The notes below the pieces were generated by a model. That model searched no databases. It was given only the letters and a program-made list of their open reading frames with translations, and was not told the DNA's origin. Both the position numbers and the translations under genes were made by a program. 64,000 bases of DNA from an uncultured Pseudomonadota bacterium (GTDB lineage Bacteria; Babelota; Babeliae; Babelales; CAIQNR01): the NCBI GenBank assembly GCA_964604015.1, contig CAZRXF010000012.1, forward strand, positions 137,955 through 201,954, read 5' to 3'. Each line of letters starts with the position of its first letter. Positions within the stretch are counted from its first letter, which is position 1. This document shows positions 48,229 to 48,691 of this stretch, in pieces.

Positions 48229-48691
48229 AAGTATGCCGTTAAGGACTATTTTTTTAAACAGCTTTTCTCTTTTTACTCTCATCTTTTCTTCCTCAAGAAG
48301 TATGTATGCGCTCTGCGCGCGGCACCAAAGGGGTACTTGTCTACCCCTTTGGAATCAGGACACAATCCTGCGGATTGATCGCTTTTTCGGCTCCAATCGT
48401 TCGTTGCGCCCTGTTGGTCGACAACTCAGTTGCGCCTAATGAGGAGTGACTAAATTTAATTTAATAAAGGTCCATATCAGGCAGAGCCGTGAGCCGTCCC
48501 CCGAAGGATGTGGCGAAACGTCGTTGCCGTCATAGGGATCCAAGGGAACCGTTGGTGCCCTGGTTCCAAGGGGGTGGGCAAGCACCCCCTGGCGCTCCCC
48601 CACGCGCAGTGGGGTACATGCTTCTTGAACTTAAGAAAAAAGATGAAAGTAAAAGAGAGGGGTGTGTCAAAGGGGAGACAAATCTCCCCTT
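48229..48691. repeat. Foldback repeat element, compact copy (two ~200-nt inverted arms, ~70-nt centre)
   Basis: The left arm 48250-48448 is about 90 percent identical to 31655-31838. The right arm 48535-48691 is its diverged reverse complement. Internal perfect hairpins are CCAAAGGGGTA/TACCCCTTTGG (48325-48352) and AAGGGGAGA/TCTCCCCTT (48670-48691). Confidence 0.85.

Follow-up and report, generated by a model that had tools for sequence, protein, structure and literature searches.

Known small repeats and the element under study

IS200/IS605 elements and their derivatives carry subterminal hairpins, produce no target-site duplication and insert 3' of a short specific sequence, and their ends are not inverted relative to each other. 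Within the context of these and other small bacterial repeats, we describe here a 439-bp element that contains no genes and consists of two inverted, diverged and hairpin-rich arms (copy C, positions 48263-48701). It lies between a giant operon and uvrC in a 64,000-nt stretch of DNA, hereafter the window, from an uncultured bacterium assigned to the Babelales (assembly GCA_964604015.1, contig CAZRXF010000012.1).

A MITE, or miniature inverted-repeat transposable element, is defined by the lack of a transposase, by terminal inverted repeats around a core, by a target-site duplication, and by a length that is generally <200 bp, with some members of approx. 400 bp (PMC3184786). Filled and empty alleles at orthologous positions of close relatives, as well as ends like those of an autonomous insertion sequence from the same or a related genome, belong to the same definition. 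Bacterial MITEs, for example Nezha, Chunjie, Correia/CREE, ERIC, and RUP, were reviewed by Delihas 2011, and the BOX repeat of Streptococcus pneumoniae is built of the modules boxA, boxB, and boxC (PMC3184786). The repetitive extragenic palindrome (REP) is a smaller unit, i.e., a single short GC-rich imperfect palindrome of approx. 20-40 nt with a GT(A/G)G head, and genomes usually contain >100 copies of it (Nunvar et al. 2010, PMC2817692).

It appears that copy C belongs to a young, lineage-specific family of foldback/mosaic repeats in a Dependentiae (Babeliales-like) chromosome, as an insertion element that is both non-coding and non-autonomous. We regard this reading as probable and hold it with moderate confidence. 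The evidence that carries it comes from orthologous sites in related genomes.

An insertion at an otherwise short operon junction

Contigs from metagenomes and metagenome-assembled genomes (MAGs) that encode UvrC homologues supplied the junctions for comparison, and the spacer was taken from the stop codon of the last giant gene to the ATG of uvrC. In the window, this spacer is 480 bp long. In the closest relative, L104, whose UvrC is 86% identical to that of the window, it is 40 bp; in L094/L095 (UvrC 73% identical) it is 12 bp, and in L099 (72%) 1 bp, whereas in L097 (82%) two spacers of 36 and 16 bp surround an extra 454-aa gene. A search for empty orthologous sites, suggested in an earlier note on this DNA, therefore yields four relatives that have a junction of 1-40 bp and no element. 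In L091 (81%), however, the spacer reaches 811 bp and is filled with units of the same family, which are diverged, full and partial, and rearranged.

The alignment with L104 sets the exact boundaries of copy C. The junction reads ...GGG TAA followed immediately by GCTGTTCAAAAACATTTCCCTTATAGGCATACTTGGTTTT and ATG in L104, whereas on the minus strand of the window ...GGT TAA is followed by the 439 bp and then by GCTGTTTAAAAAAATAGTCCTTAACGGCATACTTGGTTCTT and ATG. Copy C is thus flanked on one side by the stop codon at 48702-48704 (minus strand), which ends the 1564-aa gene, and on the other by the native uvrC leader with its ribosome-binding region (48222-48262, minus strand), which lies outside the repeat, is identical to the 40-bp spacer of L104 at 27/35 positions, and contains a GGCATACT motif that is kept also in L091 and L097. 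The repeat had earlier been placed at 48229-48691; part of that interval is this native leader, and the inserted block is instead 48263-48701, an extent (not assigned to either strand) on which the empty-site comparison, the complementarity of the arms and the long-hairpin fold agree. Judged by the alignment with this empty site, copy C is shown to be an insertion placed right behind the stop codon of the giant operon's last gene; it splits a junction that otherwise measures 1-40 bp.

Against the real empty site of L104, no target-site duplication longer than 2 bp is present at copy C, AA alone being common to both ends, which bears out the earlier impression that no duplication is visible. 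A TTAAC/TTAACG direct repeat was considered as a duplication and was rejected, given that its uvrC-side copy lies in the native leader according to the comparison with L104.

In a neighbour-joining tree of UvrC, the empty L104 is the sister of the window, L091 groups with P0003, with P0004 and P0007 nearby, and the outgroups L094 and L099 are both empty. The P0007 contig has a spacer that, by its length, amounts to 590 bp. On this single-protein tree, two gains at the junction between the giant gene and uvrC, which count as two steps, are more parsimonious than one gain followed by two precise losses. Two apparently independent gains at one junction in two lineages would be a hint of site targeting. 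The extra gene of L097 (8162-9526; a 454-aa product with a weak DUF5122 match) also lies exactly at the giant-gene/uvrC junction and, together with the two repeat insertions, makes this junction a recurrent site of gain.

Anatomy of the unit and of the two arms

Alignments indicate that the family is not one of palindromes as such; rather, what recurs is a unit of approx. 190-230 nt that occurs in inverted pairs. In the plus-strand sense of 48263-48455, the unit starts with a terminal GGGG...CCCC hairpin of variable sequence, followed by the T-rich tract TTTTACTCTCATCTTT and the linker CAAGAnGTAnGTA. Hairpin H1 comes next (stem of 5-6 bp, loop TNYGC), with a GTA/GTAnGTA "head" conserved just 5' of it, and is followed by hairpin H2 (stem of 11-12 bp, loop CTTGYC or MTCACC), the linker AAnCAGGRCAC, hairpin H3, the linker CGGCTCCAATCG, hairpin H5, and finally CTCAGTTSCGCCTRATGAGGAG.

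The left arm of copy C, U1, occupies 48263-48455 on the plus strand (nhmmer E = 1.8e-54; covariance model, 65.6 bits) and is 92% identical to 31655-31839 of the window (blastn). It is truncated at its outer 5' end and lacks, relative to arms U2 and U3, the outermost approx. 45 nt, including the terminal hairpin. Its H1 is TGCGC-TCTGC-GCGCG (48307-48321, plus strand), its H2 is CCAAAGGGGTA-CTTGTC-TACCCCTTTGG (48325-48352, plus strand), a perfect 11-bp stem, its H3 is CAATCC-TGC-GGATTG (48363-48377, plus strand), and its H5 is GTTGCGCCC-TGTT-GGTCG(A)CAAC (48403-48425, plus strand). The right arm, U3, occupies 48466-48701 on the minus strand (nhmmer E = 2.4e-45; covariance model, 104.4 bits) and is complete. 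Read directly from the sequence, its terminal hairpin is AAGGGGAGA-TTTG-TCTCCCCTT (48670-48691, minus strand). U3 has H1 at 48598-48614 and H2 at 48566-48592 (both minus strand), H3 (CCAAC-GGTTCC-CTTGG) at 48540-48555, and H5 at 48493-48514. The three hairpins named in the earlier note, at 48325-48352, 48566-48592, and 48670-48691, are thus all present, the latter two as read directly. A terminal GGGG/CCCC hairpin in each arm, in turn, was not found, given that it is present in the right arm and missing from the left.

H3 and the next approx. 15 nt occur in two forms, CAAACG-TGC-CGTTTG and CCAGC-TGTTCC-GCTGG. The first form, type-1, is found in the inner region of U1 as well as in U2, U8, and V1, and the second, type-2, in U3, U4, and V2; each complete element, in the window and in the related species, has one arm of each form. 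A clean split of the arms into two subtypes was rejected, as overall identity does not separate the groups defined by the H3 form, and the two forms are kept as an observation only.

When 48263-48455 is globally aligned with the reverse complement of 48466-48701, 135 positions are identical and the score is 9, as compared with -32.5 +/- 6.1 for shuffled arms (200 shuffles); the arms are approx. 70% alike over approx. 190 nt. The earlier claim that the arms are diverged reverse complements of each other therefore stands, with its arm boundaries (48250-48448 and 48535-48691) moved to those given above. What had been described as a centre of approx. 70 nt is mostly arm sequence, with the right arm extending inward to approx. 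48466 and approx. 10-30 nt left unpaired. Folded as single-stranded RNA, a check that the earlier note had proposed, copy C forms one long and very stable hairpin on either strand (-195.5 and -203.3 kcal/mol, z = -10.9 and -8.7). Since U1 is cut short on its outer side, no inverted repeat links the two outermost ends of copy C.

These features bear on the possibility that copy C is a classical MITE moved by a DDE transposase, i.e., an internal-deletion derivative of an insertion sequence (IS), in which the arms are long terminal inverted repeats and the duplication was lost together with the outer end of U1. Inverted arms, no coding capacity, filled and empty sites, and a very stable stem-loop are hallmarks of MITEs (PMC3184786), and U1 is indeed approx. 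45 nt short at its outer end in comparison with U2 and U3. However, the one site with a defined empty allele has no duplication, IS elements have terminal repeats of 10-40 nt, unlike these arms of approx. 200 nt built from covarying hairpins, and lengths of 439 and approx. 850 bp exceed the usual range below 400 bp. We thus consider a DDE origin unlikely.

Copy C overlaps short open reading frames (ORFs) only, and the copies differ by indels whose lengths are not multiples of three. Because these indels break the frames, the 68- and 69-aa ORFs of copy C were dismissed, as was a 30-aa ORF with an AGGAG motif in the large copy described below.

Other members of the family

The earlier note had also recognised the same family at 31621-32469 and 38829-39099. 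Searches by blastn, nhmmer, self-blast and a covariance model recovered both sites, at 31.6-32.5 kb and 38.8-39.1 kb, and detected no member of the family elsewhere in the 64-kb window. All three sites lie between genes, as had been noted.

The large member, copy A (31619-32475, approx. 857 bp, not assigned to either strand; blastn, nhmmer, and covariance model), comprises a terminal hairpin (31621-31643), arm U2 (31647-31842, plus strand), a spacer, module M (31972-32160), arm U4 (32165-32345, minus strand), and a partial arm, U5 (32349-32472, minus strand), with a terminal hairpin of its own. Copy B (38800-39110, approx. 310 bp, likewise unstranded and recovered by the same three methods) is internally deleted: it consists of two inverted outer halves, U7 (approx. 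38808-38893, plus strand) and U6 (38939-39051, minus strand), with a terminal hairpin at 39079-39100, and the inner halves (H3-H5) are missing.

Module M, approx. 190 nt long, has a closing stem of 14 bp (RNA fold z = -5.6 and -7.8) and no Rfam match. It is also present in the L091 species (9551-9602 and 9856-9990), at 75% identity over approx. 100 nt. Module M is contiguous in the window, but in L091 it is interrupted by 253 nt with a pair of inverted units; therefore, the modules move relative to one another.

Copy A lies at site A, between divergent genes for an HD-domain protein and a rotamase, where the intergenic region is 1022 bp in the window and 240-254 bp in L100, L102, and L103. With a hidden Markov model (HMM) of the unit and covariance model R1, no family unit is detectable at the orthologous site of these three relatives. 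In L100, a 19-nt relic, GTAAGTATGCGCTGTGCGC (9874-9892), matches the linker and H1 at 18/19 positions; therefore, site A has seen loss as well as gain. For the genes that flank copy B, no orthologues were found in the loci fetched from relatives. The small ORFs around copy B (37769-38185, 38470-38799, and 39177-39767, plus strand) form a cluster whose products have N-termini resembling signal peptides and tails rich in Ala/Asp or Glu/Asp; a weak homologue was found for the first of them only, in one relative, and the region appears to be fast-evolving.

The same two models found no copies of the family in approx. 120 kb of six relatives (loci L007, L094, L097, L099, L100, and L102-L104). In five assemblies, metagenome contigs from the same species (98-100% identical) stop within the repeat. 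One of the contigs, L002 (ENA ERZ27283008), is 98.8% identical to the window over 31669-34609. Its positions 1-290 correspond to window approx. 31550-31840 and have a different left arm, which is 83% identical to U2, and an unrelated left flank of 118 nt; this variant is a further copy in the genome, a recombinant, or a chimera produced when the repeat was assembled. Another contig, L003 (JGI 3300015610), corresponds at 59-130 to window 32349-32406 and is a strain variant of U5 with more of H2 (CCCATAGACAAGTACCCCTTTGG) than the window copy has, which suggests patchy conversion between copies.

Such exchange would fit palindrome modules that are not mobile at all and are selected by the host as a terminator, an insulator, or a protein-binding site, as proposed for bacterial interspersed mosaic elements (BIMEs), and spread by duplication, recombination, or gene conversion. 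The patches exchanged between copies (the L003 variant in U5, the hybrid arm of L002 with its different flank) speak in its favour, as do the mosaic modular make-up, including module M, the lack of both a duplication and a transposase, and the position of a hairpin directly behind a stop codon at copies C and B and in L091. However, a clean gain of 439 bp at a collinear junction is hard to obtain by ectopic recombination alone, a probable second and independent gain at the same junction is not easily explained, and close relatives do without the element. Spread without mobility therefore seems to us an improbable account, and an insertion element remains the preferred one.

Searches for a known relative or a cognate enzyme

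No transposase domain was detected in the tested ORFs of the window, in agreement with the earlier note. A rayt gene (encoding a REP-associated tyrosine transposase, RAYT), which in REP systems has an inverted unit on either side (PMC2817692), is not present among the ORFs of the window or among the called genes of loci L091-L104, and no TnpA/TnpB gene was found. The Rfam search that had been proposed was run with Rfam 15 and gave 0 matches at the gathering score in the whole window; in E-value mode (E <= 10), matches were at chance level only (E >= 0.1). The window contains no tRNA or tmRNA genes. No similar sequences were found in plasmids, phages, or viral contigs, exact-pattern scans of collections of genomes and metagenome contigs gave nothing relevant (the single match, L090, is a chance one), and no account of repeat families in Dependentiae (TM6)/Babeliales came out of the literature search. 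Within the reach of Rfam 15, of plasmids and phages, and of this literature, the earlier statement that the sequence matches no described repeat or non-coding RNA (ncRNA) therefore holds.

Covariation of the hairpins

The conservation of stems was assessed in 12 distinct sequences aligned by covariance model R1, an alignment that is fitted to structure and thus leans towards it. In this alignment, 92.2% of the cells of the H1 and H2 stems have standard pairs, as compared with 72.0 +/- 2.3% when the 3' partners are shuffled (0/500 shuffles reach the observed value), and pairing falls to 42-62% when the partner is slid by 1-3 columns. Changes on both sides occur in 12/17 pairs (7.6 +/- 1.3 in shuffles; 0/500), namely in five of the six pairs of H1, in which 96.6% of the cells are paired, and in seven of the 11 pairs of H2. 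A hand-made table of 31 hairpin instances (H1, H2, H3, and H5) gives a similar picture: 216/229 pairs are Watson-Crick, at least two types of Watson-Crick pair occur at 22/33 stem positions, and shuffling of partners matched the observed pairing in 0/5000 trials. The H2 stems of L091 are wholly rewritten yet perfect (CCAAACAGGTTG/CAACCTGTTTGG and TTTAGGGGGATG/CATCCCCCTAAA). Loops and linkers stay similar between copies while stems change by compensatory substitution.

A functional RNA read from one strand normally tolerates G·U pairs and not A·C. In the hand-made table, G·T pairs (n = 4) and A·C mispairs (n = 3) are equally rare; therefore, the hairpins appear to matter on both strands, i.e., at the level of DNA. 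Alternatively, such strand symmetry could come from non-selective correction of quasi-palindromes, given that compensatory changes in DNA palindromes can arise without selection, by intrastrand template switching and quasi-palindrome correction.

The arms that face each other are no more alike than those that do not: identity is 61% for U1-U3, 72% for U2-U4, 71% for U1-U4, and 66% for U2-U3. What is conserved is therefore the local DNA hairpins and not the long foldback; selection for the long foldback itself is unsupported and was set aside as an explanation.

The covarying stems, with their similar linkers and loops (TNYGC in H1; CTTGYC or MTCACC in H2), would also be expected of a structured ncRNA family, comprising either small RNA genes or cis-acting leader/terminator modules, in which each unit gives an RNA of approx. 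190 nt with four hairpins and the units form convergent or divergent pairs. The folds are very stable, and the outer end of the unit faces the 5' end of the neighbouring gene in four of six cases. Nonetheless, no Rfam family matches even at E <= 10, G·U (4) is no commoner than A·C (3), so that neither strand is favoured, the family is missing from approx. 120 kb of six relatives, including both orthologous sites, and truncated, nested, and rearranged copies exist. In addition, neither a sigma-70-like promoter nor an intrinsic terminator is found at the ends of units, where the sole promoter-like motif has a spacing of 15-19 nt. An RNA family thus seems very unlikely. The earlier note had proposed a MITE or foldback-type mobile element, structured RNAs, or regulatory palindromes; the first option is supported by the filled and empty sites, the truncated and nested copies, and the lack of coding capacity, whereas that of structured RNAs is weakened.

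Two further candidates gained no support. A hammerhead-like CUGAUGA at the 3' end of the unit is not conserved (U1 has CTAATGA) and has no Rfam match, and was rejected. An outward-facing promoter, TTGAnn ... TAAAAR, is unsupported, as its spacing ranges over 15-19 nt and the consensus scan passed none.

Comparison with described repeat systems

The element resembles MITEs in being non-coding, intergenic, multi-copy, and lineage-specific, with inverted repeats, a long and very stable stem-loop, and filled and empty sites. It differs from them in that it has no target-site duplication at copy C and no short terminal inverted repeat matching a known IS, and is modular, with partial units, module M, and arms of approx. 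200 nt that are strings of four or five covarying hairpins. Regarding size, copy A (approx. 857 bp) is well over the upper range of approx. 400 bp, copy C (439 bp) is borderline, and copy B measures approx. 310 bp.

REPs and BIMEs share with the family GC-rich palindromes kept by complementary mutations, an extragenic location, species specificity, and extensive differences between strains, and for them, too, no duplication is to be expected. As in BIMEs, units of alternating orientation form mosaic clusters, and inverted pairs occur at all three sites of the window and in L091. The GTA/GTAnGTA 5' of H1 is reminiscent of the REP head, GT(A/G)G, a resemblance that is a lead only. However, the unit is approx. 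190-230 nt long and has four distinct hairpins, and H1 never stands alone as a unit, relics excepted (L100; L091 9193-9215). Moreover, the host here belongs to the Dependentiae, whereas RAYT/REP systems have been described mainly in Proteobacteria.

The element recalls IS200/IS605 in its subterminal hairpins and in the lack of a duplication at copy C, and two of its ends lie immediately 3' of (A/T)TAA; it differs in being a foldback and in that no TnpA/TnpB was found, and the target motif comes from two ends only. BOX elements are likewise modular, non-coding, hairpin-forming intergenic repeats with sub-modules in variable combinations, although their sequence and module structure are unrelated and BOX is not an inverted pair of long arms. 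The best reading is that of a foldback repeat with long arms made of hairpin strings, a lineage-specific relative of the MITE- and REP/BIME-type small mobile repeats that resembles both, yet departs from MITEs in lacking the duplication and in the large size of copy A, and from REPs in its much longer unit.

Possible movement and effects on the host

An element is made of two units of approx. 190-230 nt that face in opposite directions, sometimes separated by further modules, and together they give a long imperfect palindrome. According to the favoured reading, it would be mobilised, now or formerly, in trans by a hairpin-recognising enzyme encoded elsewhere. For such an enzyme, a single-strand HUH/Y1 type (IS200/IS605- or RAYT-like) appears to be a better guess than DDE cut-and-paste, because there is no duplication and two ends lie immediately 3' of TAA; this guess is a tentative one, which we would not be surprised to see overturned. 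These two ends, in copies C and A, read (A/T)TAA directly followed by CGA(T/G)CATTT and, further on, the GGGG hairpin; other ends differ, and few ends have been sampled. The hairpin begins approx. 12 nt from the intact end, and at copies C and B as well as in L091 a stop codon is immediately followed by a hairpin.

Several points weigh against an insertion element. Three sites only, plus the one variant in L002, have been seen for the family. The cognate transposase was not found, and the ORFs of the window include no transposase or other mobility gene. Sites A and B have no definable ends, and copy C has no duplication and no clean terminal inverted repeat at its extreme ends, one of which is truncated. 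Mobility is deduced from presence and absence only, and recombination or templated insertion could give the same pattern. A selfish element in decay has no need of such strong hairpin covariation and conserved loops, which could stem from a function in the host or as RNA, while compensatory changes in palindromes are possible without selection, through intrastrand template switching. A bolder interpretation goes in two directions: either the family is an undescribed class of mobile DNA, possibly moved in single-stranded form by a hairpin-reading HUH enzyme and perhaps favouring sites behind stop codons in Dependentiae operons, or it is a functional RNA or DNA module domesticated by the host (an operon insulator, for example, or a double-stranded RNA of great length). 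We regard this as distinctly unlikely.

Whatever its origin, copy C could affect the genes around it. Its terminal hairpin has a GC-rich stem of 9 bp and lies 10 nt behind the stop codon of the giant gene; a pyrimidine-rich tract follows, with three T only directly after the stem. The hairpin (48670-48691) did not pass the intrinsic-terminator scan, and it has a weak partial Rfam match to the terminator-like stem of CrcZ (E = 0.1). Its sequence makes it a candidate for a weak terminator, or for a stabiliser of the 3' end, of the giant operon. Transcripts that read through would form an imperfect duplex of approx. 200 bp upstream of the intact uvrC leader, and the duplex or the hairpin could terminate transcription, stabilise the transcript, or create a processing site. 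From this arrangement, it is inferred that the element probably uncouples or modulates the expression of uvrC-clpB relative to the giant operon.

Dependentiae have the reduced genomes of intracellular parasites of protists, and the family shows that selfish or mosaic intergenic DNA continues to enter genomes of this kind. Such DNA can split conserved operons, as here, where the giant operon is parted from uvrC-clpB. With long arms of covarying hairpins, no duplication, and the probable reuse of one junction, the family is a test case for the origin of REP/BIME-type repeats outside Proteobacteria. It also breaks the metagenome assemblies of this lineage at predictable places, and model R1 can flag such breaks.

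Genomic setting

The window is ordinary chromosome, with rpoD, dnaG, lgt, mnmG, tgt, pheT, lspA, murB, clpB, a short uvrC, and atpD among its genes. The nearest named relatives of its UvrC and ClpB come from MAGs of Candidatus Babeliales/Dependentiae (57% and 65% identity, respectively). The giant operon (three genes; 1197, 884, and 1564 aa), uvrC, and clpB all lie on the minus strand. The giant ORFs (48702-59637, minus strand) have no Pfam domain and are syntenic in every relative examined, where they lie immediately upstream of uvrC; a proline-rich region and a G-rich tail form the end of the last giant protein. UvrC (46926-48221, minus strand) is short (431 aa) and has GIY-YIG, UvrC_M, and RNase H-like domains, with no C-terminal helix-hairpin-helix region. 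The same form, of 415-440 aa, recurs among the top-scoring matches listed, a few of which have Dependentiae/Babeliales names. The 3' end of uvrC overlaps the annotated start of clpB by approx. 47 nt.

Two other repeats in the window are unrelated to the foldback family, namely a near-perfect palindrome of 32 nt (6884-6915) downstream of the mnmG-like gene and a weak (69%) direct repeat of two small-ORF regions (11156-11242 and 12064-12156). Finally, the sigma-70 homologue (235-2451, minus strand; 738 aa) has r2-r4 all in its last 250 residues and an unusually long N-terminal extension.

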